Source: Paramecium tetraurelia
Taxonomy: Eukaryota
Assembly (NCBI GenBank): GCA_000165425.1
Contig: CT868028.1
Span: 114,835-178,834 of the forward strand
Length of the DNA: 64,000 nt
Reading direction: 5' to 3'
The notes under the pieces were generated by a model that worked only from the letters and a program-made list of their open reading frames with translations, had not been told where the DNA came from and made no database searches. This document shows, in pieces, positions 3,753-56,805 of this stretch; position 1 is the first letter of the stretch; each line of letters starts with the position of its first letter. The position numbers were made by a program, and so were the translations under genes.

Positions 3753-4313
3753 GGCTTCTAACTCAATCCTCTTGTCCTCCTGATGTTGAGCTTCTTTTAT
3801 GGAAAACTAGAATAAGAATCTCGTCTTTTTTCATGTTATATTTAGATTTATAAATTGTGTTTAAAAATTAAAGCATTCCAGTCATGGAATATGTTCTAGA
3901 ATATGATATAGATGTACCAATAGAAACAACCATCGCAAAAGTATTCTAGATGCAGCCATTTATGCAAAGGAGCACCATTCAGTAATTATCTTGAGGATAA
4001 CTGAACAATTGGAGATTTGAAACAAGATGCTATTGCAAAGTGATGCTATTACGCGAAGAAGACGAGTTATAAAACAAATTGTAATTGGCTATATTATTGA
4101 TGCTTTTCGGTTAAATAAATTGATTAAATATTTAAGAAATATAATAGATTGTTGATATTATGAGAAATACTTATTTAGTTTTTTAGCAAGGTGGATGAAT
4201 ATAATACTGAATAAATGATTTAAATTTATAATCTTATATTTAACTTTTGATGGTAATTGGAATAAAAGGCAATCTCGCTTATTACAACAAAATATAATTA
4301 ATTCATTTATTTT

Positions 4314-7300
4314 ATGGAGGAGGAATAATAAATCTTTCGAAATATGGAGATAATATTATTCTTAGATGCATGGTGGATAATAAGATCTATTATTTGCTCG
4401 CAAGAAACGAACAGTACCTCATGGAAACAAAGCTTTAATTGGGTAATTCTTGCACATTTAACATGTACAATTTCCCTTAACACATGGTGTTCACAGTATT
4501 CCCCAAACTTTTATACGAAGCACAAAAAAAATACAATTCAGACAAGTCCATTGGAGCCTCTTTTGATGTTTAGAAACAACTTCTGTACACGAGAATGGAA
4601 ACCGAAAAAAAATATAATCAAAATCTGTTGAAGCAAACCAGAGGGTAAAAAATAATGTACGGAGATACAATAATGCTCTATTAACCATTGAGTTAAGTCT
4701 TTTTACTAAGAGCGGAGAACAATAATTCAAATTCAAATATCGGAACAATTTTGAGTTCTTCAATGTACTTCACAGTTCAACCTGATCCCTTGGCGTTAGA
4801 CATTAAATAAGGATGTCCAGTACACTCTTTCGATCAATTCCTTCTAGTTCAAAGTGACACAATATTGAAATTTGACACCTTGCAAGAAATTTACCGCCTG
4901 CCTGAAGTAGTGAAATCTTAGAATCTTGATCACAATAACGAATTCCTAACCATCCCAGCCATGATTGAGAATCAATACTAATTCAAGTTTTACAAGGCTC
5001 AATACAAGCAATTCACAACTGATTCAAAAGAGTCCATCAGCCACAACACTCTTCAAGCAATTGTATTGAAATAAGACAAAGACAAAAATCATTTGTTCTA
5101 CGGTCAGTATGTACGCATAGTGCACATGCAATAGAAGATAAAAAAAGAGAGGTAGGAATCAAGGAGAAGATCAATCAAAATTGAGGAAGCTTAAGAAAAC
5201 CAAATTAATAAAGGTTACTTGACATCATCGATTAATGCAGTTGGATGCTACCCCTCAGTTTATCTATAGATTAACGACATCTAGAATTCTGATTCAATCG
5301 AAAGGGCAGCATCTATCTTCTAGATCTTGCCAGAAAATGACCAAAAGTATAGTGATGAAGTTTAATTTACTGTTGGAAATAAACCCAATTTGGTAGGTTA
5401 CACTACTTTCCTGCTTAGACACATGTTAACAGGGGAATTCCTAAGAGTCAATCCTTTCGATAATAAGCTGTAATTATCTAAAGATGTTATCAATAAGTAT
5501 CGATAAATCAATACTACGTCATCAAAAAAACTAGAGACCACAAGATAAAATGAACCAAAGTCTACTGTGTAAAAGAATCTGCCAGGCATCAAATTATATA
5601 GAAATCTAATTACTCAATCAAATAACACCAATTAAAATAATATTAATAATATTCAAACTCAATAGGACGAGCGCATTGCAACTCAATACTAATAAACTTA
5701 AGGAAATATAGAAGAACTTGAATAAGGTTCATGTATGTCTGACCATCAATTGCTATTTGTAACTAAATTGGGCAATAATCCTATATTCTATAAAGATTAG
5801 TTGCCTTTTACAAATGATACAACATTCAATATTGCTACAAAAGATGGAAAATGTCCAATTGAAGTTGACAATTAAGAAGAGGGTGGGTATTAAGTTAAGT
5901 TAATAACCAAGTTAGGAATGTTTAATCAATATGGAGAGGATAACTTGGAGTAAACTCTGTATAGATAATTGCACGATGAGTGGATTACTTTGATCCCTGA
6001 TTTAGATTCATTCATAAAAAAGAATAAATATCAATTATCATCATAAGAAAAAGAAGTTCTTGAGTTCATTGAAGGTGAAAAGAAGAGTCAAGCAAAAAAC
6101 AAAGTTGATATGAGACATTATAAATCTGATGATGAAACCTTTAAACCTACTTTTATTAATTTGAATCCTCTCAATACTAAATACTTGGATGTATTAGCAA
6201 ATGAGGACTTTTCAGGTTCCAATTTTAAATTTGAAGTTGTAGACTAAAGTGAAATAGAAGAATTGAGTGAAGTCTTAGATCTAATGTTCCCACTCACAGT
6301 CTTAGCTAAAAACTCAATCCAACTATCAACTTTAAAATTCAAATTCAGCAATCTTAAATTCAAGGACTCCAAAGAATCCAAAGATCTAGCTTCCCAATTT
6401 CTCAGGTGTCAAGCCTAAGCCGTTCAAAATGTCAATTAGGCAGTCAAGTCACTGTTCAAAATTATGTTATGGTTAACTGCCTCTCAAGAAGCTTTGGCTT
6501 AAGAAAATTTAATCTCTGAACCTTTGGTAAGAAGATAGTGTATTGCCAGAGAAATCGGTTGCATAGACTATGTAAATAAGATAATCTATGAGTTAAATAT
6601 CAATGGGCTATTATATGAAGATAAAGATTCAATCAAGTAGGATGAGGAGATGTTTCAATAGGATATCAATCAACTAATTGATTTGCTTTCCTCGTTTTTA
6701 TAATTGGTTTGTAAGAATTCAAATGATAACTCCTTATACGTCGTCTAATGGTATTGTCTCTATAAGCACATACTGTTGAGAGGATAAGTAAACGATTTGA
6801 TGAGACTAGACATCTTGATTACTTAATTGTTCTAATAGTCAGACGTTATGGTTTCGTTTGAATTTGAAGTCACTCAATTATCGAAGGAAACCAAATCTAC
6901 AAACTACAACAAACATGCTTTTAATTTATTAATTGCCTTTTGTCTTTTCACTGAGTTTAGAAAGAAGGAGGGCATCGAAGGAATAATTGATCATATCTTC
7001 AAGCAAAATAAGGATTCCATATTTGCATAGCTCATATTTGATGGCAATATTCAATTGATTTTGAGGGAAAAGATCTAGGACTTTTAGAAAACCATAAGAC
7101 AATCTATGGATTCAGGTCTTCCCATTTCAAGTCCAATCATGATAGAGGGCTTGAATTTTTCGAACAGACTAGCATTGCACGATTACATCATTTCTTGTGT
7201 GAGGTTGGCTTCAGAAATTTCTAAGTCCTCCCCTGCTTTGACTCTAAAGGAAATCAAGCACTTATTTCCCTTCTATACCGTAGCCAAGATAATCCAAGAT

Positions 7301-10300
7301 AATAGCATTTCATCGTTAACCAAATCGTACTTTTTGGAGTTATTCCAGAATTCCTATATGGCTAAACACTTAAATCCTTTGCCAAGAGCCTAATTCCCTT
7401 AGTATTTAAAAATGGTTGTCAAATAGAACAAAGGGAAAGGATTCTTATCAATGTTTAAAAAAGAAGAGTACGACATCATTCTCTATACATTTGCATAGAA
7501 GAAGATTGCTGATGTCTATTAAAAGGTGGCCAAAAAATATTTGGTGGAAACTGATACAACTGTTGATTTTTGGTTATTTTTATCAGATTTCATCACAAAC
7601 TTTTGGAAAAGCAAATCCATATATGAAATTAAAGGCACTGATCACATTTATATTAAATAATTGATTTTAACATTCACAGAGTTCTTAAAAAAAGGATTAT
7701 TCATTGAATATCTTAGCAATGCTCACAATTTTTATAACATGTACCATAAATTCATTGAATTCCTGAAGAATTCTGTCGTTTCAGCTACTCTAGAGGAGAA
7801 ATACATCAAACATTAGTTGTAGGACAACAAAAAATCAAAGGAGCAGAAACCTTTAGAAGTGAAGGATTATTTGTTTGAGAGTTCAGTGGCATAAAGGGCA
7901 GTGTCTAGAACGACTTATGCAAAGAGTATGATATGGCTTGATGAGTTAATTGAGATTCTAATTCTGTTAGAACAATTTCAGCAATCGAGAATGGCAGACC
8001 AATTTATTATCACAGATGACAACTAAACAATGTTTGATGATCTCCAATACTTATAGAAGTTTGCCAAGGATAAAAAGTATGCAGATGTAGTTTAAAGGTT
8101 GAGATAAGCCAAACGAGCAAGTTATCATACAAGAGGATAGCAATCACAAAGTCAACTCAATCAAAAGGATATATTCACAACTCAAGAGTTGACAACAATA
8201 TTGAGAGAGTGTTCTTATGCTCGTAAGACTGTGATCTTAGAATATTTAGGAGGTATAAAATAAACTGATATATCGTTGGTTTACTTTTTGATTGAATTGC
8301 TTACATTAAATTAAATAAGACTATCAGCCAAAGTGACTGAATTATTGTGGCTGATTTATTCATCAAGAAGTAACTTTCTTTAAACATTGAACTAAACTAT
8401 CTTGATTGAGGCATTTGATCAAGGAGAGTTACAATTATAAGTAAATTAGAACATATTTACAGACTTTTCAAATATTTATTGGAAATTGCATTTTGCAATT
8501 ATAGACTTGAAAGAATCCTTGGAGAAAGACTCTAACAAACATTATGAAACAATTAATGATGCCTTATCAGACATGTTAGTGATATTCTTCCCTGATTATG
8601 CTGCTAAATCTGATATGTAAATGTTCATGGAGATTAATTAATTGGAGAATGAGGAGAAACATTACTAGGCACAAGAAGAGAAGATGGTTAAGAGCAAAAT
8701 AAAATAAGAGGTGGCTGTCATAGAATAGTTTGTATCAAGGGCAGAACTTGATCTAATTGACGTCTCAGCACAAAGTCCAATGAGGGATTAATAAAATGAA
8801 TAATTATAATCACTGAAATCGGCCACAATCGATTAGTAATAAAAGTATGTTTGGAAAATCAATAACTCTCTATCAATTGATGTGTTGACCATCTATTATA
8901 GATAAAAGTTATTGAGATACCTGGGATTTCATGATTTGATGTATAAATTGATTGAAAACCTAATATAAGAAACAAGCACTCTATTTAGAGAGAAGGATGT
9001 CCTTGTAAGCAATGCAAATAAGAAAGGATGGGAGATTAAGAGCGACATCTTAGAAAAGAGTATTCTATTCTTGATTTATTTTGTAATACGAAATGAAGAA
9101 AACCAAGAGATGATACTCAATTTAAGTAAGAGGAAGGATTCCTTTCTACATGAAATGTCTAATGTAAAGAGAAAGCAATTGTAGACTTTAATTTATATTT
9201 TGTTTGCTGAACTGTTTAGAGACAATTACAACATATTATTCTCATTAGATAAGTACAACGACGAAAATTCAATATTGGCGAAATTGTTCGGTATTTTTGG
9301 TAACAACTTTGCAAGTAAAAATTATGAAGCAGCAATCTATTTCCTTTAATTTTTATAAATCCTATTGAAAGTAAAAGAGAGTGAAGTTGTGTAAAACTAT
9401 TCAGTAATTATACAATTGTTTTAATCAACTAAACAATTGGCCACATTTGCCAAAGATATTGCAACTCTGATCCACACTATTTATCTCTTAAGATTGGAGC
9501 AATTCTTTACTGGCAGCCATGCACCTCTGCCTCAAACACCCAATAATTAATAAAGGCATGCATAATTTAATGGATTCATTGAAATGCCTTTAGAGGTGCT
9601 ATTCATGACAGAACTACTAAGATTAATGAGAATTATCTGTTCCAAGAGATCAGTTCTCGTTAATGAATTCGTCAATAAACTCTTTCCAGTTACAAGAGTG
9701 GCTGAAATGTTGAAGTAATTGGACGAATGGTACCCTTTGAAATCAGAACTAATCCTCTATTTTTAGAGTGTGTTTCTGGATAATTTACAATTCTTAACCT
9801 TTGAAGAGAAACAAGAAGTTGTTAAAACCATTACTGAAGTGATATTCAAATAAATGACATTGAGTTTTATTGAGAATTAGAATCTTAAGAAAATGGCAAA
9901 TGCAAAATTAGTAAATAACATAGTATTCAATATCTTTGGAATAAGAAATTAGTACACTAGTTAAGAGTTCATTATGTCAATATCCCACGAGAAAGCAAGC
10001 TTTATCTATGTGATTTTTGGAGTCTTGGAAGTGACTGAAAACTTTGTGAAGAAGGTGTTTCCTAAATTTTTTTAGAGTGATGAACAAGAACACTTTGAAG
10101 ATGTTTAAAATGAAATTATTTTCATGGCATAAACCATAAGTGAAACAGTTCAAAAAGTAAAAGAGTACATTAATGATGTACCTAATGGAGGCACAGGTGG
10201 GAAAATGAAAAATTCGAATTATAAGAGAAGAAGTGGGTAAAAAACAACTAAATTGTTTAATCTAACACATAAATTGCTATCTAGTAACTAGGATGAATAG

Positions 10301-13300
10301 AATCAGGAATTGAGCATTCTGGCTAAAGAAGATAATGAAATTGATAAGATCAATATAATTATGATAGTTAAAACAATAGACTCGGTCAAGCTCTCAGAAG
10401 TTTCCTTTTAATTGTAAAGGAATGATATGCAATAAGCAGAATAAGGAATTCTAAATAAATGGATAAATTCCATTAAATCCTAGAGAACCAAACTAGTAGA
10501 TGAACATCTTGTGGCTTCAGAGAGAGAAAATGAAATTTAATAGTTAGTTAATTTAATTATTACTTTAAAACGAGATGATACCACCAAATTTAAGAGAATG
10601 GTAACTGCCCTTATTTAAATGTTATCTGAAACCTCAGTATCTCCCTCTATCAAGTTGAAATCTATCAATATAGTAAGAAAACTATCTAATTATAAAGAAG
10701 ACTTTCAAGTAACCAAGTCGATACTTAAGGATTTGGGTGAACTTGGATTCACAGATTTTCTATGCGATTTAATCAAACAAGAGGTTGATTCTGAATAAAA
10801 GCTCGAATACATTAAGGCCTTTGTGGATTACATTGATGATTCATCGAGAGAAATTTAGAACTCCTTTTTATTGTATCTACAAAGGGATGTTCAGAACACC
10901 TTTATAAGAAATTTGTAAAACTTCATAACAGACATGTTCTAAGATGTCAGAATGGCAGAGATATCTAGAATAGAGAGGAATAATAAGAATATAAATAAGA
11001 TATTGAATAATAAGATCAATGGTTGCATTTTGATATTTGAAATGTTTCGTCTAGGTTGTGAAGATCATTTTAGTGACATGTAAAACTTTTTGAGGATTCA
11101 ACCTAATAGTAAATAACCAATCAACTTTATTATGTTTACAGCTGAATTATTCGAGAAATACGTTGAAAAAATGAATGAACATAACGCAGCTCTAGGTTAA
11201 AAAATACTAGATTTTTTAATTGAATGCGTTTAGGGTCCTTGTCTCGAGAACTAGACTGAATTATGTTAATCTACTAAGATTTTGGAGGTTCTCGAATAAA
11301 TTATCATTCAATAAAGAGTTGATAATGATAAGTTTTAAAGAAGAGATATCGTATTTTCAAGTTTGAGAAGTAAGGTGTTCTTACTTTAATTATCCTTAAT
11401 GGAAGGTAATAGTGATTAAGAAATTGCAAATAAGATATCTCAATATTTCAATCCTCAGATACTCTTCGAGAGAATATAATTAGTTTACTGGAAGATTATC
11501 AAAAAGATAAGAAATACATAAATGCAAATAAATTTAGAGTTGAAAGTGTTGGATAGAGTGAAAACGGAAGCTGAAGAATCTGTAAATCTGCACGGAATCA
11601 TACAGACCAAGGATACTAAGGAGACTTTACCTAATTAAAATTTATTCATGGAGTTCTTCTCGGAGAACTTTAATAGTTCTCGTGGTCCATCACATCTCAG
11701 AGAGTCATAACAAACTTAAGTAAATGCTATACAGGAAGAGGAGATGGAAGAAATGGTTGGTGAAACCTTTATGATGTATCTATTACTCAAGAAACTCAGC
11801 AATTACATTCCCCAAATCAAAAACTTAACTGATGGCGAAAACAATCCCAAATTGAGAAGAGCTCTGAATTACTACAAAAATGAGACTGCCTCCATTGAAA
11901 TTGTGAATATGAATGGCAAATTAGAGAAAATATACTTTTAGGTTCCCACTCTGATGAAATATTTGACAGAAGAAACCAAACACTAATTCATGGAAGAAGT
12001 AGAAAGAGATTCTATCAATGATAAGATCAATGGCTTGCTAGATAACATGGATAACTTTTATATGGAAATGGTGCATTTTATGAAGTTACGAAAAATCGGA
12101 ATCAGATTTAACAATAATTTTATTGTTTATCTGAGAAATGTCTGCATTATTTTGGCTCTCCTCTTGAACATCCTAATTACAATAAATGACACTGAAGAAA
12201 AGCTGGCAAACCTTGCCAAAGCCATAGCTATTGTGAATTGCATTTTGTATGGATTGATTATGCTCACCTGGGTATTTATCAGAATGCAATTGGAGTACGA
12301 TCGAATCTATAAATAGGTGTCAGATTTGATCCAATTAAATTACAATAAGAAATCGAATCAAGGATAGACTTAATAGGTCAATCCAAAAACAGTCATTTAT
12401 CCTTTCCAAATTACATTATTGCAAGCATTCTTAATTATAAAACGAATGTTATTTAGTAGTTACACCTTTTATTGGTTCTTATTGCTGGTCATCAATTTGT
12501 TGGGTTTGCTGTATAATAAATTATTTTATGGGTTTCTACTGTTGGATATCATAGATCATTCGCAAGTGTTAAGAAATGTCATCAAAAGTATTTCACTCAA
12601 TTACAAACAACTTTTGATGACAGCCTTATTGGGAGTCTTAATCATGTATTTAAACATAGTATTTATTTAGGTATTTGTACTCTTTGGTCGCATACTAAAG
12701 CACTGATTTTAAATAATAATTGAAAGATGGCAATGATAATAATGGAGATGATGAAGTTACTGATCCTTTAGATTAGACGGTCTGTTACTCTGCATTTTAA
12801 TGTCTTGTGTATGTAATTCACTAAGGTTTACGAGCAGGTGGAGGAATAGGAGATGCTCTTGAAGCACCTCCGACTCATTCAAACTTAAACTATTATTCAT
12901 AGAGAGTTCTTTATGATGTGACTTTTTTCATTCTCATTAATATCATTTGGCTGAATATCATCTTTGGTATTATTATTGATACCTTTGCTGAATTGAGAGA
13001 TTAGAAGAATCAAAAAGGTAACCTATTATTGTACTATTCAAGATTTCGATTCTCAGAACAGATGTTATATTTGCGACTTAACAAGAACAGTATTTGAAAA
13101 AGAAGGTATATCTTTCGACAATCACGTTCAAAAATATCATAACCCTTGGAATTATCTGGCTTATTTGCTATACTTAAAAGTGAAGCAGAAAACCGAGCAT
13201 ACAGGCACAGAATCATATGTCTATAGTAAATTCCTGCAAAATGATATAAGTTGGTTGCCCATTTAAAAGGCACTTGATTTAGAATTAATTGCAGAACAAT

Positions 13301-20921: not shown

Positions 20922-21789
20922 TCAAACTTAAGATTTTTTCTTTATCTTTTTATTTATCTAAGTATTTTATTAATTCTTTTTTTATTTCTTTTGTGGCATC
21001 CTTCTGTTTTCACATTCCGTACATTAGCAATGAGATGTGCACTTCTTTCCCCTAATGAAGCATTCACAGTAACCTTTTACACATTTTGTCTTTTTGCACT
21101 TACAGCCCCACACTTATTTAGTATCGAAGGAATCCAAATCATGATGTGATGCTCTCTGTTCTTTTATCTTAATTTATTCAACTGCCTTTTAAACTTCTTC
21201 CTCGTGTTGCCCATCATTATAACAATCGTTGCATCTGCATTCACTCATGCATCGACGCCGATTATGAAAACAAGAACAATATAATTATAAACAATGAGTC
21301 TTTGTGCAATGACAAGGTTTCATCTCGTCTTATTCCACAGGAGAATCATCAACATTATAATTTGCTTTATTCCCTTTTCTTCTCGTTTGAATCTATTAAA
21401 TAGTTGGTATTTCCTATATTTCAAACTATCTTATTTCAGACACAGCCTCCTATTGAACTTTCCTCTCCTGTTTCTTAGGAGGAGAATATTTCATTGGACT
21501 CATGCCTTCTATTGACATTGGTTTCTTTGTTTGATTTTGACAGTCATCTATCGACATTTGTGAACTATTCAAATCATGCCCATCTATACATATATAGCAT
21601 TAGTTTAGGCACTGGAACATCCTCTATTAATTCAGCAGATGACAATTAACTCTGAGTTTGCGGCCTTACTAATTCCTATTTAACGTTATCCCGCTATTCA
21701 TTATCCTTCGGCATAAATAAATCCTCATGCTTTGCCAAATCATTAGATGATGAAATATACATTCCATTTTAGCTCTCTTTATTACTCAT
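20922..21789 (-). CDS. CRC/CXC (tesmin/TSO1/LIN54-like) DNA-binding protein
   Basis: PCHCTKTHCLQLYCSCF..C..EC.C.DCYN and GCKCKKTKCVKGYCECF..C...C.C.ECEN. Confidence 0.9.
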
Positions 21790-23122: not shown

Positions 23123-24400
23123 ATGCAATAATTGGAAACTCAATATTGCTATTATAGCAATTTCAATTTATTTGAAAGCACATCTCAATTGTTAAAGAGA
23201 GATAAGTTTGTTAAATCATTATTGCTAACTCTAGGAGAGGAATGGCGCATATATGCTGGACAAGCAATCACTATAGAATTAGATGGATAAGTACATCATT
23301 TCGCATGGCAATTTTGTTTTGAGAATTTACTTTTTGCTTGGTTAGAGAACGAAGATACACCGTATTTAGAATTTTATGATAAATCAATTTAACGCATAAG
23401 TCCTTATAATATAGGTATCAATCAAATAATTTAAATTAGATGTGGTTTATTTTAGGCCTGTTTTTGATGGTTTCTTCTATTCTGCTTAATAATTGTGGTA
23501 AAAAATGAGATTGAGCAGACCACCCTCCCAAGAATCCTTCAAATCTTTAGATCAAATTAAGTAAGAGGAAATTAAACCAATGTCAAATATTCTAAAACCA
23601 TTGGTGGTTGTAAGTGAAAGGATTATCAATTATTTCAGAAAAGAAGAGCAAGCATAGCCTTAAAGAATGGAATATCCATAATACTAATAGCCAAGTTGGA
23701 AACAAATCTCTAAACTCACAGAAGATTCTTTGCCTCTTGAATTGATCGAGAATGCATACATCTACGTCAGTTAATTCATTCAAAAAACATACAAGAATTG
23801 TCAAGTAGCAAAATCATTCATCGTTAATATTATTGAACTAAATCATGATGCGCTTAGCAAATTCCAAATCTCAAATTAACAAATCAAAATTAGAATAATG
23901 TAGCCATCTTGTTTGATGTACGATAATTTACTATCAATTTGGACGTTAGCAAATGCAGGTATTTAACCTCAATACTTTGATCTTATCGACAGGGCTAAAT
24001 CTTTATTGGGTAATAATTGGAAAGACAATTATTAATAGCCTGTGGAAGTGTTTTTTTAAATGATGTCCAAACTGCATGGCAGCATCATTCTAAATCCATA
24101 GATAAAGTCAGAAGATTAATTAAACCATTTGCTATAGAATATGAGAATTCAAATGGCTCAATTGTGGGAATAAGAAATAGTTTAATCAACTTTAGAAAAA
24201 TAATGATTAATGTTATATTGTGTATAAAATGTGAAATATTTCAATTTAATTCAGAAATGATTAACCCTCAATTGATGGAAAGTGGAGAACAGAGATTTTC
24301 CAAGATCTAGTGCTGAACAAACTCTTTGATTAACATTTAACCTTGGAGGAATTTGTCCTATTAATCTTCAAGAATTTTTCCATCAAAATTGTTTAATTGA
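23123..24400 (+). CDS. Hypothetical protein (3' end uncertain)
   Basis: Long code-6 ORF MQQLETQYCYYSNFNLF... with 25-nt intron at ~23415-23439. Confidence 0.5.
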
Positions 24401-24880
24401 AGGATATATTTAAATTTAACCTAAATAAATCAATCTATTTCAATGTAATTAGATCACTACATCAAAAATAATTACGAGTTGTTATTTGAGGATCTTAAAG
24501 ATGTAAGATTCAAAGTATGAAAAGAAATATTAACACTGTGATAACATTTCATAATTGAAGCCTTAAATAAACTGTAGTTAATTAAAAAGATTTAAGGAAG
24601 AATATCTCACTAAATATTGTGATAAGTGAACAATATAAGATATTATTTTTAAATTCTTAATCCTTTTACTTAAACTATAGAAATAAAAATAAAGTTAATC
24701 AAATTAGAGGATTATATGAATTATGTATGTTAAGTAAAAACAATCCAAATTGAAATAAATACATTAAATACGAATAATTGGATTATAAATATTAGATGCT
24801 TATATGAATTTTTTCTGTTTTAAGATATAAACTAATAATTTTATATAAATCTTTTCATTATGAGATAAAATTTTAAAGAA

Positions 24881-24951
24881 TTGACCGTCGCACATAGGAA
24901 GTGCAACTGATTGTAGCTCAGAAGGTTATGGTTCGATTCCATATGGTCAGA
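24881..24951 (+). tRNA. tRNA-like gene 1 (subtype A), loop TTGTAGC, nominal anticodon GTA (Tyr)
   Basis: TTGACCG-TC-GCAC-ATAGGAA-GTGC-A-ACTGA-TTGTAGC-TCAGA-AGGT-TATGG-TTCGATT-CCATA-TGGTCAG-A folds as a cloverleaf; T5 run downstream. Confidence 0.8.
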
Positions 24952-25118
24952 ATGTTTTTATAATCATAACTTTTTTATTTTACAAGAATAACTTGATAAA
25001 TTCAAGATAATTTCAATTATCACGCAAATCTTGTTATATTATTACTTTATGATAGTGAATAGATACTAGATTATTCTAACTTAATTAATATAATCCTTTA
25101 TGAGATATTTTTTAATGA

Positions 25119-25189
25119 TTGACCGTCGCACATAGGAAGTGCAACTGATAGGATGTCGGAGGGTTATGGTTCGATTCCATATGGTCAAG
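25119..25189 (+). ncRNA. tRNA-like gene 2 (subtype A), loop TAGGATG, nominal GGA; lacks U33 and purine 37
   Basis: 4 differences from gene 1 outside the loop; perfect B box GGTTCGATTCC; T-run terminator. Confidence 0.8.
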
Positions 25190-25311
25190 ATTATTTTTAT
25201 TAATACTTTTATTTTTAATTTAAGACCATTTTACATAACCAACTATTAATACATCCAAGAATTCATTAAATTATTGTATTTTAGTTATTACTTATTTATA
25301 ATATCATAGTA

Positions 25312-25383
25312 GTGATCCTCGCACAAATGGTAGTGCAACCGAAAGACAATCGGAGGGATATGGTTCGATTCCATGGGGTTACA
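25312..25383 (+). ncRNA. tRNA-like gene 3 (subtype B), loop AAGACAA, nominal GAC; lacks U33
   Basis: GTGATCC/GGGTTAC acceptor, GCAC/GTGC D stem, CCGA/TCGG anticodon stem, TATGG/CCATG T stem. Confidence 0.8.
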
Positions 25384-25549
25384 ACTTTTAATCATAACTT
25401 TTTATTGTGAATTGAAGGTTATTTAAAAAATAACTTTAGAAATTCAAGAAATTCTTATTTATATTGTGAATTTTTGTATTATGATGTTAATAGATATTCG
25501 ATAATTATAAGAAAATTCAGATTTAAGCTAATGAAAAAATATTCAATGA

Positions 25550-25620
25550 TTGACCGTCGCACATTGGAAGTGCAACTGATTGCAAGTCAGAGGATTATGG
25601 TTCGATTCCATATGGTCAAT
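25550..25620 (+). tRNA. tRNA-like gene 4 (subtype A), loop TTGCAAG, nominal anticodon GCA (Cys), U73
   Basis: Cloverleaf fully paired except the A27:A43 mismatch; B box and T-run present. Confidence 0.8.
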
Positions 25621-25715
25621 ATTATTTTATTAATACGTATATTTTTAAATTATAACATCCAATAATCAAATAATTTATTTTATTTTTGTAATTATCTATT
25701 TAAAATATCATAGTA

Positions 25716-25786
25716 GGAACCCTCGCACAATGGTAGTGCAACCGATTACATATCGGAGGGCATTGGTTCGATTCCAATGGGTTTCG
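25716..25786 (+). tRNA. tRNA-like gene 5 (subtype B), loop TTACATA, nominal ACA
   Basis: GGAACCC/GGGTTTC acceptor; ATTGG/CCAAT T stem (compensatory relative to gene 3); CTTTTT follows. Confidence 0.8.
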
Positions 25787-25957
25787 CTTTTTATCATATC
25801 TTTTTATTGTGAATTGAGGAATATTTAAAAAATAACTTTAGAAATTCAAGAAATTCTTAGTTATATTGTGAATTTTTGTATTATGATGTGAAAGTTAATA
25901 GATATTCTATAATTATAAGAAAATTCAGATTTGAGCTTATGAAAAAATATTCAATGA

Positions 25958-26028
25958 TTGACTGTCGCATATAGGAAGTGCAACTGATTGCTAGTCAGAG
26001 GGTCATGGTTCGATTCCATAGGGTCAAT
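25958..26028 (+). tRNA. tRNA-like gene 6 (subtype A), loop TTGCTAG, nominal GCT without a long variable arm
   Basis: Same body; G7:G66 and C49:A65 mismatches suggest decay. Confidence 0.75.
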
Positions 26029-26260
26029 ATTATTTTTTAACTAATATAGATTATTATTTAACAATAAAAATATATAAATTAGGGTCAGTCACACTTTTTT
26101 TAAATAACCTATTTATTATGAATTTTATGCATTTGATAAAAAAAAACAATCTAATGTCTAGGTATCTTCAATTATTCTATGAAATTCGCCATTTATTTAG
26201 CTAGTGATTGAATAATTACAAATAAATTAATATTGTAATTTAAAAGAAAAATTTCAATGA

Positions 26261-26331
26261 TTGACCGTCGCATATAGGAAGTGCAACTGATCGCAAGTCA
26301 GAGGGTAATGGTTCGATTCCATAGGGTCAAT
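26261..26331 (+). ncRNA. tRNA-like gene 7 (subtype A), loop TCGCAAG, nominal GCA; C33
   Basis: Same body; G7:G66 and A49:A65 mismatches; T6 terminator. Confidence 0.75.
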
Positions 26332-26660
26332 ATTATTTTTTAATTATTTAGATTATTATAATTAATTAGAATTTAGTGAAAAAAATTTATTTAAGAAATT
26401 CTAGATTATTTTTGAATTATTTAATAATTATAGTGAAATAATTAAAAGAAGTAATTACAAATATCATTTGGGCCCATTCCTTTATTTATATTTTTCAATC
26501 AAACTAATCATAAACAGGATTCAATAACAGTATAATACTTTTATTGAAATTAAATAATAGATTTTTGTTCTCAATAATTCATAGAATTACTATATATTTA
26601 GAACTATAATCTTGAATTGAATAATTATGGTGGATATATTATAAAATTTAACATAAAAAA

Positions 26661-27817
26661 TCAAATCAAATTTTTTCTGCAATTATTTGATCTAGCAGAT
26701 CTTTGTGTGTATCGATGGTATAGAATTCATCAATCTTTTTATCTGGCATAATTTAAGAATAGGTTTTGGTTTAGAATGTAGAAACTAATTTTAGGAAGAA
26801 TAATACTTTTTTCTTAAATATTTCTGATTCTTGATGAAAGCATACATTAGTAATTGGACAAAGTTTAAAGATGCATTAATTTATATTGCAAGGCTTCATC
26901 TACGTCCATATTTGGTTGTTTTTCGTAATACTTGATCATATTATTAACAGTGCTAGTCAATCGATCTAATTATTCATATTATTGAATAATTAGTTGTTCT
27001 TAATATTTTTAGGGAACAGAAAACTATTAATTAAGTCTAACTGTGCCGGATAATTGATCATATGATTCCTTCATAGTTTGTTAAGCTTTTTAATAATCAT
27101 TGCATTGAGCCTCTTCTTTTTTTAAGACTTCAAGCCCATCCTCTGTAATTTTCTAAACCAATCCAACAGTCGAAATGTATTCATTTAGATTTTTAGACAA
27201 ATCCTTTTAACCAGCTAAAATCTATTCAGAAGTATCTAGAACAGATTTGGTATCAATTTGAAAGACTATTTGAGAAATTGGCTAGATCATTTATTACCAT
27301 TATTAGTTTTAAGCAGGTTGATTAATAAAGGTTTTTTCTGTTTCACCGATCTTTAGAGTCAATGCATTATATTTTTCTTTAAAGGCATTAGAATCATTAA
27401 TTAAAGTTTGAATCTAATTTTATTGAGGATATTATAGACCATTCTACATCATTCCTGGTTACTATTATTAAGGCGTGGTAGCAAATAAATTAGGTTATTA
27501 TCCAAAGGCTGGTTATGTGTTTCCAAATAGGTTAGGAGTTGTCGTTGATGTAGGACCAAATAAACCTTAATTTTGAGCTGGTTATCCTAATAATGATGTT
27601 TATCCAAATCCACCTATAGAATAATATATATGGAAATACCTATCCCTTGTTAAGTTTAAGTATTTGTCTATCCAAACATCATATTATTTTATTGCGTTGT
27701 TTATGGATTGTTAAAGAGGTTATTTGATTATTGAGCAGCAGGTGCAGAGAATATGGAATTTGTTTAAGGAGGTTAATTTCCGAATAAACCTTATTATGTT
27801 GCATTTGGATTGAACAT
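26661..27817 (-). CDS. FG-repeat nucleoporin with C-terminal coiled coil (Nup58/Nup49-like)
   Basis: GLFG, MMFG, GFG, GLFG, NLFG, PAFG repeats in a Q/N/T-rich N-terminus, then a helical region; two short introns. Confidence 0.75.
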
Positions 27818-27883
27818 ATTAAATGCTTTAATTATTTGTTTAAATTATTTGAATATTTATTTTAGTAAAATAATGAATAATAC

Positions 27884-28482
27884 TCAATTCAATGGATAGT
27901 TTAAATATTATGTGAATTGAGGAATATATTTCTGAGGATAATGATGACCATATGATAACAAGAGAATTTTATTTTAAAACCTTTCAATGTCAGTCCAATT
28001 AAGTGGCATCAGTTTAAAAACTAATGATGTTAACCCATTTCTATCAAATGAACCACTGCAACTGGAGAAAGTATCACCTGGATAATTTAAATAAAATACC
28101 ATAATTTTCAATGTTAAATGACTCTCCCAAACAAGATGCTTTAAAGTGCATAGATTAACCGTTATACGTCACAAATTATAAAGAGGTGATGTACATTCCA
28201 TCATAAGTGCCAGTCACCTACTATAAATCTACATAACCCATTAAAATTACAATCATCCTTTTCTATAACGAACTCTTCTTCCCATACATAGAAATAAAAC
28301 TTGCTGAGACTATTGGCACAGAAATTATGATCTTTATAGATTTATCTCTATTCATAAAATATTCCTATCGCTACTATATTTTGTTTATTGTATTGGATTT
28401 TGACTCTAGTTATTTTATCTATCATTCCATCATCAAAATCATCCCCCTAGGGTTTACCAATCGATAGATATTTGCCTTCCAT
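27884..28482 (-). CDS. Jacalin-like (beta-prism) lectin domain protein
   Basis: GKPQGDDFDDG...ITRVKIQY...EEFVIEKDDYLQQVTGTYDGMYITSLQFVTYNG...FSSCSGSFDRNGLTSLVF; two 22-nt introns. Confidence 0.7.
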
Positions 28483-53202: not shown

Positions 53203-55365
53203 AAAAATTTTATTATTACAATCAATACTATGATGTAATTACTTAAATTTAATACCATAGAATGCACTCATTTTGATAAACATATTTAATACTAATTCCA
53301 AAGTGATACCAAAAAGAGATAGTTCTTAAGATAAGTCATTGTACTAAACCAGAAAAACCAATATGAAACGAGAAGAAGATTTATATTGAAGTTCAATATG
53401 AAAACCTTGGCTCAAATCAGAATTGCCTATACTTAATCTAATAATGCATTAAGATTCCCAACGAAGAATGAGAAGAAAGTGGAAGATGCACATCAATATA
53501 TTAACTGAAAAAATAGGGGAAGTATAGAAAAGGATGAGAATATGACTCAACAAATATAATAGGGCCCAAGATAAATCTACAAAATGGAATACAAAAATAA
53601 GATTATTAAAGATTTATTTACTAAAATCAGAAATTATCAGATTCCATTTATAATTTAATTTGTTAATTGCATCTAAAAGGAAAGGTGAAGCGGACTATAT
53701 ATTTTATCTAACTTAAACCTCATCAGACTTGATCTATTGACACCATTTAAGAAGTAAATATGTAATTTTTGATTTAGTTTTAGAAATTAATTGTCCTCAA
53801 ATAATTATTTAATATTGGCAAACAGAATTTACCTATTTTTTGAACTAGCTGTTAGGATGGGTGAACTTAAGTAAATAACATTTTATTCTAGAACCTTTAG
53901 ATCTTAAATTTTACATCCTCAATTGATAAAAGACACGGAAGATTTAGAGTATAAGTTTAAGGAGAACAGATTAGATACACATCTTTAAGAATATTTTATT
54001 TTAAAATTTTTCTTTTTTCTAATTGTTTTGTTCATTCTTACCTGACCTACACTTAAATTAAACTGAGCTGAGATTACAGAATTTTCAATCCTTCTTTTAT
54101 AACCCTTAAATTTTTTAGTTATGCTTAGATTAATGGAGAAAATCTGAACTTTTTTGTTGTTGTTAATTTCAATTTATTATTAAATTTTTCTTTTCTATTT
54201 TTTCACATGTTTCAATCTAACTTATTAATTCATAACTTTTGTTATAAGGAGATTGGTTGAAAAATAGAATATTAAAACTCAATTGTGTTTTAAACACATC
54301 ATTTTCATAAATGATAAACAGTATGTTGTACAAACCATATGCCTATTTAGCAGTGTTTGACTATTGTATGAAAAAGGTTGAGATTCATCTTTATTTGAGT
54401 TGACCGTTCTTGACTTTTTAATATCAGACTGGAAATTAAATTCGATTATGTAATTAGAAATCAAAATGTTTTAGGAAGATTAAATATTTTAATTTGACTT
54501 AAGAGAAAAGATCAGTTGATACGATTTTTTCGAGTAGCAAAGAATAAGTCAGCTCAAATTTAAGAATAAAAAAAGTCTGATTATAAATAAGTATTGGAAA
54601 AAATAAAATATCAAAAAAATACAGATTAAATTAGGAGCAAGAAAAGAATTAGAGACCTGATTAATCATTTGAAACTAAATTACAAAAAACTAAAATAAAT
54701 TAATGGAAACCTCACTTCGTTAGAATCGAATAAAATGTCTTAGAAAATGTTCAAGAAGTAGGACTAAATTTGGATACATTGATTTTTGCAAGCTGGAATC
54801 AGTAATAATCTTAGAAATATAAGGAAAAATAAACACAAATTAAAGTGCGAAAATGTCCAAAGAATTTTGTTCATAAGACTATGTCCACAGAATAATAATT
54901 CTCTAGACAAATAAATAATTTTCAAAAAATCATTGATTTGCCAGTTTCCATTTCTACTTTTGGATAAAATCCTCTTGTAAAAATAGAAAAAATTTAGAAC
55001 ATTACAATGGTCTAGAATTCTATAATTTGTTCTTCCAAAGACTTTATGATAAATCATTTTTATAGGAGAATTTCATAAAAGATGGAGGACTTTTGAAGCA
55101 AATTTTTTCCATATTTAAAATGATTATTGTTTTTAGAACCTAAATTTCAATATATAAGTTTTGGAATGACCTTAAATTAGGATTTTAGGTTCTCACAATA
55201 TCAATTTTAAGTTAAAAACTATTTATTTCAAGGTAAGTATTAAATTATATCATTGTTGTTTTTAATTTATAATATTAGTTTACCAAAACACACTCTTTCC
55301 TACAAACACAAATTGTAAAAAATTTCCTGAATTGATCATAGTAGAAATGTAAAATGACAAAAACT

Positions 55366-55435
55366 TGACCCTTGAGGAATTGAACCTCGAGCTTCCAATT
55401 ATGAGTTGGTTGCACCACTATTGTGCGAAAGAATC
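55366..55435 (-). tRNA. tRNA-like gene 8 (dispersed family member), loop CTCATAA, anticodon CAT (Met)
   Basis: GATTCTT-TC-GCAC-AATAGTG-GTGC-A-ACCAA-CTCATAA-TTGGA-AGCTC-GAGG-TTCAATT-CCTC-AAGGGTC-A; T5 terminator; shares C9, the GCAC/GTGC D stem and A27:A43 with the array. Confidence 0.75.
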
Positions 55436-55736
55436 AATATATAATAGCCATCCAAAGATTAAGTGAGAATATAAAATTTATATATCTAGGCTATGATTTA
55501 GATGTCTCAATCTCATTAAATTATCTAAGATGATCAAGAGTTCTTGAATTATTTTGTATATATATTTTGGTTCTAAGTAATTTAAGAATGCTTTTGGTTG
55601 CTTTAATACATAAAAATAATTATTGAGATAAATATTATAATAGTAGTGATTTAGACTCATCATTTCCCTTATTTTGAACTATAAATTATTATTTTGGAGA
55701 ATTCATTAATGAAAGGATAAGAAATATGTTAAGCTA

Positions 55737-55810
55737 GCCCTCCTAGCTCAGTTGGTCAGAGCGTTGGCCTTTTAAGCCAAATGTCAAGGGTTCGACCCCC
55801 TTGGAGGGCG
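55737..55810 (+). tRNA. tRNA-Lys(TTT)
   Basis: Canonical cloverleaf GCCCTCC-TA-GCTC-AGTTGGTCA-GAGC-G-TTGGC-CTTTTAA-GCCAA-ATGTC-AAGGG-TTCGACC-CCCTT-GGAGGGC-G; T6 terminator. Confidence 0.97.
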
Positions 55811-56731: not shown

Positions 56732-56805
56732 CGCCCTCCAAGGGGGTCGAACCCTTGACATTTGGCTTAAAAGGCCAACGCTCTGACCAACTGAGCTAGG
56801 AGGGC
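56732..56805 (-). tRNA. tRNA-Lys(TTT), identical inverted copy
   Basis: Exact reverse complement of 55737-55810. Confidence 0.95.

Follow-up and report, generated by a model that had tools for sequence, protein, structure and literature searches.

Variable anticodon loops on a conserved cloverleaf in a tandem array of tRNA-shaped genes from Paramecium tetraurelia

Why do substitutions accumulate in the anticodon loops of tRNA-shaped genes whose remaining structure is conserved? The question is raised by an intergenic region of Paramecium tetraurelia, which we analyzed within a 64,000-nucleotide stretch of contig CT868028.1 (the window, in whose coordinates all positions are given). Seven tandem tRNA-shaped genes of 71–72 nt each lie here head to tail on one strand, where the initial annotation had claimed five; they comprise two alternating body types, A and B, and have a relative 30 kb distant, at 55364–55437 on the minus strand. 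The window is nuclear DNA of the P. aurelia complex, and in it the array is flanked by a CXC-domain gene near 20.9–21.8 kb and an FG-rich ORF at 26.7–27.9 kb. The interval first singled out, 24911–25752, extends from the start of the first anticodon loop (24911–24917) to the end of the fifth (25746–25752). Working from seven copies in one genome, we give slightly better than even chances to the explanation that these are tRNA-like genes that do not decode and whose loop is free of constraint, lying in array segments of differing age.

Two sequence patterns recovered all seven copies (chance expectation about 0.03 and 0.11), while Rfam and ARAGORN each missed two of the seven. All lie on the plus strand. 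The first, g1 (type A, 24881–24951, loop 24911–24917 TTGTAGC), has every stem paired, is labeled Tyr GTA by ARAGORN and scores 46.6 bits against the Rfam tRNA model. The second, g2 (type A, 25119–25189, loop 25149–25155 TAGGATG), carries A33 and is labeled Ser GGA by ARAGORN, with a 4-nt variable loop, but is not listed by Rfam. Both programs overlooked g3 (type B, 25312–25383, loop 25343–25349 AAGACAA, with A32 and A33), which was detected by pattern; its stems are all paired, its body has a G1-C72 acceptor and an 8-nt D loop, and the cloverleaf is its MFE fold. The loop of g4 (type A, 25550–25620, loop 25580–25586 TTGCAAG, Cys GCA, 48.3 bits with Rfam) equals the type-A consensus; this copy has T at position 73 and is the sole one to combine an unremarkable decoding loop with intact stems. 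ARAGORN also found g5 (type B, 25716–25786, loop 25746–25752 TTACATA, Cys ACA, 51.1 bits with Rfam), whose stems are all paired and which has a pyrimidine, T, at position 37. The last two are g6 (type A, 25958–26028, loop 25988–25994 TTGCTAG, Ser GCT on a short-arm body, 33.1 bits with Rfam) and g7 (type A, 26261–26331, loop 26291–26297 TCGCAAG, with C33, missed by ARAGORN, 30.7 bits with Rfam). They have the same two mismatched pairs, 7-66 and 49-65; the MFE fold of g6 is not a cloverleaf, and both genes, with two broken pairs each, may be on the path to pseudogene decay.

A model built from the seven array genes (R1) recovered, in the 64-kb window, the same seven (92.2 bits for g1, 93.9 for g2, 82.7 for g3 and 95.6 for g4) and the relative at 55364–55437, which scored 47.9 bits, against 27.3 for the window's two Lys tRNAs. 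ARAGORN labels this relative Met CAT, Rfam gives it 44.5 bits and its loop is canonical; it shares the array's D arm and a similar acceptor start, and is predicted to have a 9-bp acceptor and a 4-bp T stem. An A.A at pair 27-43 is common to all eight members, the relative included.

Substitutions do pile up in the anticodon loop, as first proposed: all seven loop columns vary, compared with 25 of 65 others (Fisher p = 0.002), and among the five type-A copies the figures are 5/7 and 10/64 (p = 0.004). Recounting by window coordinates reproduced the earlier pairwise counts exactly, with g1 and g2 differing at 4/7 loop positions and 4/64 elsewhere, g2 and g4 at 3/7 and 4/64, and the loops of g3 and g5 at 6/7. 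No two of the five structurally intact copies share a loop, and the 40 invariant columns, which include the entire B-box block GGTTCGATTCC, contain none from the loop. We infer eight loop changes among type-A copies, five of them transversions, with no preference for A/T. Position 73 varies much as the loop does, with three states in seven copies.

Outside the loop, the array retains the form of a tRNA. Judged by Rfam RF00005 (stems of 7/4/5/5 bp, a T-loop, GG in the D-loop and a gathering score of 29 bits), five of the seven genes reached the gathering score, while g2 and g3 were absent from the output even at E up to 5, though their stems are all paired. Aligned as a cloverleaf, 92.3% of cells are paired, compared with 27–39% in slid controls, and 9 of 21 pairs are altered on both sides, a number matched in none of 500 shuffles. 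All 20 standard pairs are retained by g1 to g5. Between g3 and g5, eight stem positions differ, yet both keep 20/20 standard pairs, with three pairs changed on both sides, two on one side and none broken; in simulations, eight random stem substitutions preserve all pairs in about 1e-4 of cases. The cloverleaf is under clear selection, whatever the reason for that selection. Type-A bodies diverge far less than their homologous spacers (g2/g4, 4/64 versus 49/152, p = 2e-5; g2/g6, 6/64 versus 52/157, p = 2e-4), whereas type-B bodies diverge at spacer speed (g3/g5, 10/64 versus 15/95; g1/g5, 20/64 versus 52/157). With all pairs kept, the type-B changes resemble active compensatory turnover more than quiet purifying selection. 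Positions 8–12 and the B box are invariant in all seven genes, and a run of at least four T begins 2–5 nt past the gene end in 7/7 (background at most 0.13). From these sequence features, namely internal A and B boxes and a T-run terminator, the array genes would qualify as RNA polymerase III type-2 genes. In a poly-A run, one partial read lay over the spacer between g6 and g7 (26054–26201) and none over the seven genes; contigs from four sequencing runs looked genomic and were identical to the window, with no variant letters.

The proposal that the loop evolves faster than adjacent spacer depends on how the spacers are related. Spacer A, between g1 and g2 (24952–25118), is homologous over its full length to spacers C and E, with 32–33% mismatch. 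Spacers B (g2–g3, 25190–25311) and D (g4–g5, 25621–25715) are homologous to each other, with 15/95 mismatches and a 26-nt indel, as are C (g3–g4, 25384–25549) and E (g5–g6, 25787–25957), with 9/165; spacer F (g6–g7, 26029–26260) resembles type-A flanks only in its first ~15 and last ~20 nt. All are given on the plus strand. In body and upstream flank g1 is type A, yet its downstream spacer is homologous to those after type-B genes. The spacers that follow g3 and g5 are indeed little diverged; the lengths and counts first given for them (~150 nt, ~7 substitutions and one indel) need revision to 166 and 171 nt, with nine substitutions and seven gap columns, mainly one 6-nt indel.

Comparing each loop with its matched spacer, we found the claimed excess in the two of six comparisons that involve g3: g3/g5, where 6/7 loop positions differ as against 9/165 in the downstream spacer (p = 1e-6) and 15/95 in the upstream one (p = 2e-4), and g1/g3 (6/7 versus 49/152, p = 0.007). 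In the other four, g2/g4, g4/g6, g2/g6 and g1/g5, it is not significant (p = 0.23–0.68), and keeping pace with the spacer in four of six comparisons is how a loop without constraint should behave. The loop of g3 differs from every other loop at 5–6 of 7 positions. Even without its loop, the g3/g5 body (10/64 substitutions and one indel) exceeds the downstream spacer, with three times its divergence (p = 0.017), and equals that of the upstream spacer (15/95, p = 1). Spacers B/D and C/E, parts of one repeat unit, have themselves diverged unequally (15/95 versus 9/165, p = 0.0075), and with loop columns removed, a change-point analysis placed a break after 25419, 36 nt past g3 (permutation p = 0.02), separating blocks with 31/194 (16%) and 11/201 (5.5%) divergence. 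The spacers do not tick as a single neutral clock, and because they differ in age they are an unreliable yardstick. Gene conversion or homogenization of the spacer had been rightly named as an alternative, and the change-point supports later duplication or homogenization; the reading preferred at that time, in which selection diversifies the loop or the loop serves as an address, is not favored, with no excess in four of six matched comparisons. Even against the 16% of the older block, however, 6/7 differences between the g3 and g5 loops are improbable (binomial 1e-4, assuming single-site changes), so that selection or a multi-base event may have shaped the loop of g3. As one such event we considered that the hairpin loop of g3 was inverted: its reverse complement would restore the T32-T33-G34 start of most copies but saves only one or two steps, a stem of 4 bp is short for an inversion, and the loop excess persists (p = 0.015). 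We do not adopt it as an explanation.

Could these genes nonetheless decode? ARAGORN reads Tyr, Ser, Cys, Cys and Ser anticodons on five copies of one shared body (GTA, GGA, GCA, ACA and GCT), and the available text of PMC3923123 documents eukaryotic gene families in which anticodon shifts moved members from one tRNA class to another. On this view the array would be a working isoacceptor set produced by anticodon shifts (alloacceptor remolding), one body reading Tyr, Ser, Val and Cys codons. The loops and bodies make this very unlikely. A decoding tRNA requires U33 and a purine at 37, seryl-tRNA synthetase needs a long variable arm, and eukaryotes do not normally use GGA and GAC anticodons for four-codon boxes. 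Just three of the seven loops are canonical in this sense (g1, g4 and g6); the rule is broken in the other four, by A33 in g2, A32/A33 in g3, T37 in g5 and C33 in g7. In g2 (GGA) and g6 (GCT), the body class disagrees with the anticodon, as Ser anticodons sit on bodies with 4-nt variable loops; GGA and GAC are both unusual for four-codon boxes, and the array genes reach 31–51 bits in Rfam, where the window's Lys tRNAs reach 71. If the genes do not decode, they might instead be ordinary decaying pseudogenes, with the likeness of their bodies owed to recent duplication and short-tract gene conversion and the RNA unselected. That g6 and g7 each have two mismatched pairs and score low in Rfam, and that g6 fails to fold as a cloverleaf, is consistent with this, as are the mosaic flanks of the array and the identity of the central blocks in types A and B next to differing gene ends, as predicted for conversion limited by flanking non-homology; tRNA-like paralogues of Blepharisma are so interpreted in the available text of 10.1101/2023.10.09.561518. 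We consider it unlikely. Conversion tracts over a 71-nt gene should homogenize the central loop too, g1 to g5 keep every standard pair, with the g3/g5 compensation so rarely reached by chance, and the terminator T-runs are kept in all seven genes, in at least four sequence contexts, so that pairing, promoter and terminator have not been lost at the neutral rate expected of decay. An origin as a tRNA-derived SINE or retroposed copy was rejected, as the units are 71–72 nt long, end at the T-run, lie head to tail and have homologous spacers.

Two further explanations concern the rate at which the loop changes. Diversifying or positive selection may act on the loop, perhaps also on base 73 and the acceptor end, in non-decoding RNAs with a 7-nt specificity loop. 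Several observations point this way, among them the g3/g5 and g1/g3 loops that exceed their flanking spacers (p = 2e-4, 1e-6 and 0.007), the distinct loops of all five intact copies, the loop-like variability of position 73, type-B bodies that change at spacer speed solely in pair-preserving ways, and type-A loop changes with no drift to A/T. We nevertheless doubt it, with about the same skepticism as for pseudogene decay: the excess is absent from four of six matched comparisons and both significant ones share the g3 lineage, just one of seven loop bases differs in g4/g6, the most recent of the clear duplicates, the heterogeneous spacer ages undermine the yardstick, and a single multi-base event in g3 would remove most of the signal. 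Its bolder form, in which a tRNA-shaped Pol III family serves a job other than decoding and the loop, base 73 and the outer acceptor pairs are positively selected specificity elements, seems to us a shade less likely still. For specificity-bearing identity positions, we note that the type-B lineage changes at spacer speed without a broken pair and that each intact copy has its own loop. Least probable of all would be transcription-associated mutagenesis, speeding change at unconstrained sites of the transcribed unit and its immediate flanks without selection. Such an effect would accord with the clustering of five of the nine C/E spacer mismatches in the first 40 nt past g3 and g5 (5/39 versus 4/126), and, in the available text of PMC6130373, tRNA loci are reported to mutate at 7–10 times the genome average, with variable immediate flanks. 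The loop excess is absent, however, in g4/g6 and g2/g4. In ciliates, a growing cell transcribes its macronucleus, which is not passed on, while the germline micronucleus stays silent, so that damage linked to transcription should rarely become heritable. The loop changes are also mostly transversions (5/8), while such mutagenesis is said, in the available part of PMC13034040, to yield mainly transitions.

The explanation that we favor, of non-decoding genes with an unconstrained loop in segments of differing age, would account for the array as follows. All seven would be RNA-polymerase-III-type genes derived from one tRNA body, for which a Cys-like ancestor is our guess from the type-A consensus loop GCA and the T at 73. 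Local duplications with differing boundaries would have assembled the array, and selection has maintained the cloverleaf and internal promoter. Because most copies are probably not decoders, their seven loop bases would be free of constraint and may have drifted to saturation. The Blepharisma paralogues, whose divergent anticodons were put down to relaxed selection, offer a precedent. That the g3/g5 loop outruns its adjoining spacer would then mostly reflect unequal segment ages, the spacer after g3 and g5 and the next gene having been duplicated or homogenized later than g3 and g5 themselves, as the change-point suggests; one or more multi-base hits probably also struck the loop of g3.

Searches beyond the array yielded no further members. 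The strict family pattern matched no stretch in metagenome contigs and none in viral contigs; a looser D-arm pattern matched 105 metagenome and 47 prokaryote stretches, among which were no Paramecium-like arrays. These 152 loci comprise 153 matches, 22 with a T-loop-like motif, and are bacterial or archaeal tRNAs and chance matches. One locus that resembled the array in D arm (identical) and acceptor start (similar) lies on a bacterial-type contig with a tRNA-Arg and two tRNA-Gln genes and was rejected as a clue to the family's origin. Reading frames of 44 and 112 aa that pass through the array genes gave no further copy candidate when used as queries, and a match from the exhaustive ORF search, to a 1408-aa repeat protein (E = 1.8e-4), is unrelated. 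A permissive Rfam scan of 24300–26800 returned tRNA matches only, plus two far below threshold; inspection by eye of the conserved spacer for box C/D features found no proper D box; and a scan for bacterial-type promoters and terminators, which is not applicable to ciliates, found sites no commoner than in shuffles.

If our favored explanation is true, a tRNA-shaped gene that has left decoding can retain selection on its fold and promoter while the anticodon loop becomes its freest part. Adjacent spacer in a tandem array is then a poor neutral clock, and the Tyr, Ser and Cys labels that gene finders attach to these copies would distort Paramecium codon/anticodon tables. If instead the bolder specificity reading holds, eukaryotes would have a family of tRNA mimics whose address loop varies, which would be new. 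In either case, their silent germline nucleus makes ciliates a useful control for transcription-associated mutagenesis at tRNA genes.

Literature searches on Paramecium tRNA-like genes, pseudogenes and arrays turned up no account of the family. The available text of a Paramecium small-RNA paper (198 annotated tRNAs and 689 "other RNA" loci; PMC6735861) holds nothing specific to the array, and the accessible portions of the Tetrahymena genome paper and of PMC10553269 hold nothing on this tRNA-shaped family. Among systems described in sources available to us in part, the closest parallels are clustered nuclear tRNA families in which anticodons have shifted and some copies are pseudogenes (Rogers and Griffiths-Jones 2014, PMC3923123; in Drosophila, PMC2997554). 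As portrayed there, these too arise by tandem local duplication of one body, their paralogues have differing anticodons and are assigned different amino acids, and flanks are needed to separate paralogues from orthologues, as in the array. Unlike the one-base shifts of those families, the array loops differ at 3–6 of 7 bases, four of them break decoding rules, and the stems change in compensatory fashion. Blepharisma, also a ciliate, has tRNA-Trp-like paralogues that are alike in body but not in anticodon and were taken for pseudogenes under relaxed selection (10.1101/2023.10.09.561518); in the available text they share with the array a conserved sequence and secondary structure, notably in the T stem, alongside divergent anticodons, and the 4-bp anticodon stems discussed there have a counterpart in the A.A at 27-43 of our eight members. 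They belong, however, to another ciliate class and derive from another tRNA body, and the portions of that report available to us contain no array with homologous spacers and no comparison of loop and spacer rates. The tandem tRNA-Ser/Tyr (SYY) cluster on Arabidopsis chromosome 1 (10.1101/2023.09.27.559738) likewise alternates tRNA gene types within a compound repeat unit, but its genes, in the part of the source available, are genuine decoding tRNAs for Ser and Tyr, each type on a body of its own, whereas the array types share one core and have mostly non-decoding loops. A tRNA-shaped RNA that does not decode is the pseudo-tRNA "tRNAOther" of Bacillus cereus, so described in the accessible text of PMC3399842. 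The array resembles such RNAs in keeping the tRNA fold and tRNA-type processing signals, presumably for another job, while the anticodon region departs from the rules. Others of this kind are mascRNA, the trypanosomatid SRP tRNA-like RNA and the tRNA-like stable RNAs of phages T4 and T5. These examples are single genes of fixed sequence, some with a known partner, whereas the Paramecium array has seven copies whose loops are all different.

The array consists of seven head-to-tail tRNA-shaped genes, not five (g1 to g7, 24881-26331, + strand); the interval singled out in the initial annotation, 24911..25752, spans the stretch from the anticodon loop of g1 to that of g5. Between 24.9 and 26.3 kb, a D-arm/anticodon-stem core pattern matched the + strand at seven places (about 0.03 matches expected by chance), with an extra three-mismatch match at 55.4 kb, and a T-loop block pattern matched at those same seven places. 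ARAGORN called five of the genes (Tyr-GTA, Ser-GGA, Cys-GCA, Cys-ACA and Ser-GCT), missing g3 and g7, and the Rfam tRNA model also listed five, missing g2 and g3, at 31-51 bits compared with 71 bits for the two Lys tRNAs of the window. A covariance model trained on all seven genes and run over the window recovered every one of them at 83-96 bits. This model scored a Met-CAT gene (55364-55437, - strand) at 47.9 bits, far more than the 27.3 bits of the ordinary Lys tRNAs, and the family therefore reaches beyond the array. The Met-CAT gene has a canonical loop, shares its D arm and an A.A mismatch at pair 27-43 with the array genes, and is predicted to fold with a 9-bp acceptor over a 4-bp T stem, which makes that stack one pair longer than the usual 7+5. 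The two tRNA-Lys (TTT) genes, identical in sequence and each scoring 71.2 bits with Rfam, lie inverted about 1 kb apart (55737-55810, +; 56732-56805, -). DNA pattern scans of metagenome, viral and prokaryote collections found no Paramecium-like copies, protein-level searches with reading frames through the genes gave no useful matches, and our search of the literature on Paramecium tRNA-like genes found no description of this family.

Counting differences from the window by coordinates, we confirmed the counts first made by eye: g1 and g2 differ at 4/7 loop positions and 4/64 elsewhere, g2 and g4 at 3/7 and 4/64, and g3 and g5 at 6/7 loop positions. Outside the loop, g3 and g5 differ at 12/65 under the MAFFT gap placement, made up of 10 substitutions plus 2 differences from placing a one-base D-loop indel. 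Across all seven copies, every loop column is variable (7/7, at least 13 steps), compared with 25/65 columns outside the loop (30 steps; Fisher test, p=0.002), and the loop contributes none of the 40 invariant columns. Type A alone shows the same concentration of change (5/7 versus 10/64 variable columns, p=0.004).

Cutting the genes arm by arm separates type A (g1, g2, g4, g6 and g7), with T1-A72 or T1.G72 as first pair, from type B (g3 and g5), which has G1-C72 and a different acceptor stem; the two types have the D stem (identical), base 26 and the T arm in common, along with a nearly identical anticodon stem. In all eight family members the topmost pair of the anticodon stem, 27-43, is an A.A mismatch, which leaves 4 bp of the stem; for other ciliates, short anticodon stems have come up in connection with stop-codon reading (10.1101/2023.10.09.561518). 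All other pairs are standard in g1 to g5; in both g6 and g7, pairs 7-66 and 49-65 are mismatched. In the eight-member alignment 92.3% of cells are paired and 9/21 pairs have changed on both sides; none of 500 shuffles reached any of five pairing measures, and sliding partners by 1-3 columns left only 27-39% pairing. Eight stem positions distinguish g3 from g5, and both retain 20/20 standard pairs, an outcome seen in about 1e-4 of simulations with eight random stem substitutions. Type-A bodies have diverged far less than homologous spacer (g2/g4, 4/64 versus 49/152, p=2e-5; g2/g6, 6/64 versus 52/157, p=2e-4). The B-box block is invariant across the array, and a run of at least four T begins 2-5 nt past all seven genes (chance at random positions at most 0.13), in at least four different flank contexts. 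Together, covariation, g3/g5 pairing, type-A conservation and the B-box and T-run signals show that the tRNA-shaped body is under selection, and the genes have the look of Pol III units that are being maintained. Thermodynamic folding gives weak structures (-15 to -23 kcal/mol, versus -29 for Lys), and the cloverleaf or a near form is the minimum-free-energy structure for g3, g4, g5 and g7 and not for g1, g2 and g6. The type-B lineage has changed at spacer speed with zero pairs broken, which is odd under simple purifying selection.

The array repeats as a compound unit of 5'-slot gene, C-type spacer, 3'-slot gene and B-type spacer (spacers A to F being the intergenic stretches in order). Spacers C and E differ by 9/165 mismatches and one 6-nt indel, B and D by 15/95 and one 26-nt indel, and A differs from C and E at 32-33% over full length. 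The claim that the loop outpaces spacer held for g3/g5 (6/7 versus 9/165, p=1e-6, or versus 15/95, p=2e-4) and g1/g3 (6/7 versus 49/152, p=0.007), and failed for g2/g4 (3/7 versus 49/152, p=0.68), g4/g6 (1/7 versus 9/165, p=0.35), g2/g6 and g1/g5 (both 4/7 versus 52/157, p=0.23). The excess is thus confined to comparisons with g3, whose loop differs from every other at 5-6/7 positions; elsewhere the loop behaves like unconstrained DNA.

Outside the loop, g3 and g5 are more diverged than their downstream spacer (10/64 versus 9/165, p=0.017) and equal to their upstream spacer (15/95, p=1), and the two spacers of one unit are themselves unequal (p=0.0075). When units 1 and 2 were compared in a maximum-chi-square scan, with loop columns removed and 5000 permutations, one break was placed after 25419, 36 nt past g3 (31/194 mismatches to the left, 11/201 to the right, p=0.02). 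The segments of the array thus form a mosaic of ages: duplication or homogenisation reached the distal part of spacer C/E and the next gene later than it did g3/g5 and the upstream spacer; gene conversion of the spacer, originally named as the alternative, matches this pattern. The g1 gene is hybrid-like (24881-25118, with its downstream spacer), having a type-A body and an upstream flank like that of g2 and a downstream spacer homologous to those following type-B genes, which suggests that an unequal exchange took place close to a gene's 3' end. g6 is also mosaic: its 3' flank and two derived changes in its body link it to g7, and its long upstream spacer links it to g4.

Against the 16% divergence of the older block, 6/7 loop differences between g3 and g5 still have a binomial probability of 1e-4. 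A pairwise aligner can shrink them to two indels and two substitutions, and reading the g3 loop as an inverted hairpin loop would restore the T-T-G start of most loops, with 4/7 differences remaining (p=0.015). One or a few multi-base events would be enough, and selection, preferred at first as diversifying or serving an address function, may also lie behind the g3 excess. Transcription-associated mutagenesis, under which gene and near flank should outrun distal spacer, is improbable here. In animals and other models, this mechanism is reported to make tRNA loci mutate 7-10 times faster than the genome as a whole does on average (PMC6130373), and 5/9 mismatches between spacers C and E fall in the first 40 nt, the near-flank excess that mutagenesis predicts. 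The effect is absent, however, from the other gene pairs, and transversions make up 5/8 inferred type-A loop changes. Ciliates keep their germline nucleus silent while they grow, which also counts against it. The loop observation is real yet narrower than first stated, and the claim that the loop outpaces neutral change rests on one lineage within an age-mosaic array.

Many indexed sequencing runs contain this sequence, none of them listed as RNA. Contigs from four runs over the array were identical to the window, with no variants and no usable expression signal. In run X17, whose kind is a guess, the two contigs that cover g6, spacer F and g7 (25830-26337) had a word depth of 16-35, compared with only 3-8 over the remaining array, and the last stops 6 nt past g7, within its T-run; this rise could reflect copy number, a repeat or RNA, among which contigs cannot discriminate. 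A 36-nt AT-rich piece of spacer F (26096-26131) matches longer contigs from elsewhere in three runs with 6 differences and is probably a short dispersed repeat.

The window has 23-38% G+C. Read with the bacterial code, its 64 kb contain only two ORFs of at least 150 aa; with the ciliate code (TAA/TAG = Gln) there are 22 of at least 250 aa. The 2819-codon frame among them (4247-12706, +), open under the ciliate code with 139 TAA/TAG codons, codes for a calcium release channel of the IP3/ryanodine-receptor type and CRC-IV kind. Its queried C-terminal part (residues 2200-2819, 620 residues) shares 96% identity with a P. pentaurelia protein and 91-92% with proteins of P. sonneborni and P. tetraurelia, which marks the window as nuclear DNA from the Paramecium aurelia species complex. 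A frame with Tesmin/TSO1 CXC domains (20922-21764, -; E=2e-21) and, directly downstream of the array, a Gln-rich frame with FG/GLFG-like motifs (26730-27884, -) are ordinary, with no evident link to the array.

Working tRNAs have a near-universal U33 and a purine at 37, and seryl-tRNA synthetase requires a long variable arm. Position 33 is A in g2 and g3 and C in g7, position 37 is T in g5, and g2 and g6 combine a Ser anticodon with a variable loop of just 4 nt, so that most array genes are unlikely decoders. Only g4 joins intact stems to an unremarkable loop; its loop is the type-A consensus and, with the T at 73 in g4, g6 and g7, leads us to guess at a Cys-like ancestor. Judged from sequence, the array genes are tRNA-shaped, probably Pol III-transcribed units with a selected body and a loop that is probably free and mostly non-decoding. 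The closest precedent comes from another ciliate, Blepharisma, where tRNA paralogues with similar bodies and divergent anticodons, as in the Paramecium array, have been taken as a sign of relaxed selection (10.1101/2023.10.09.561518).
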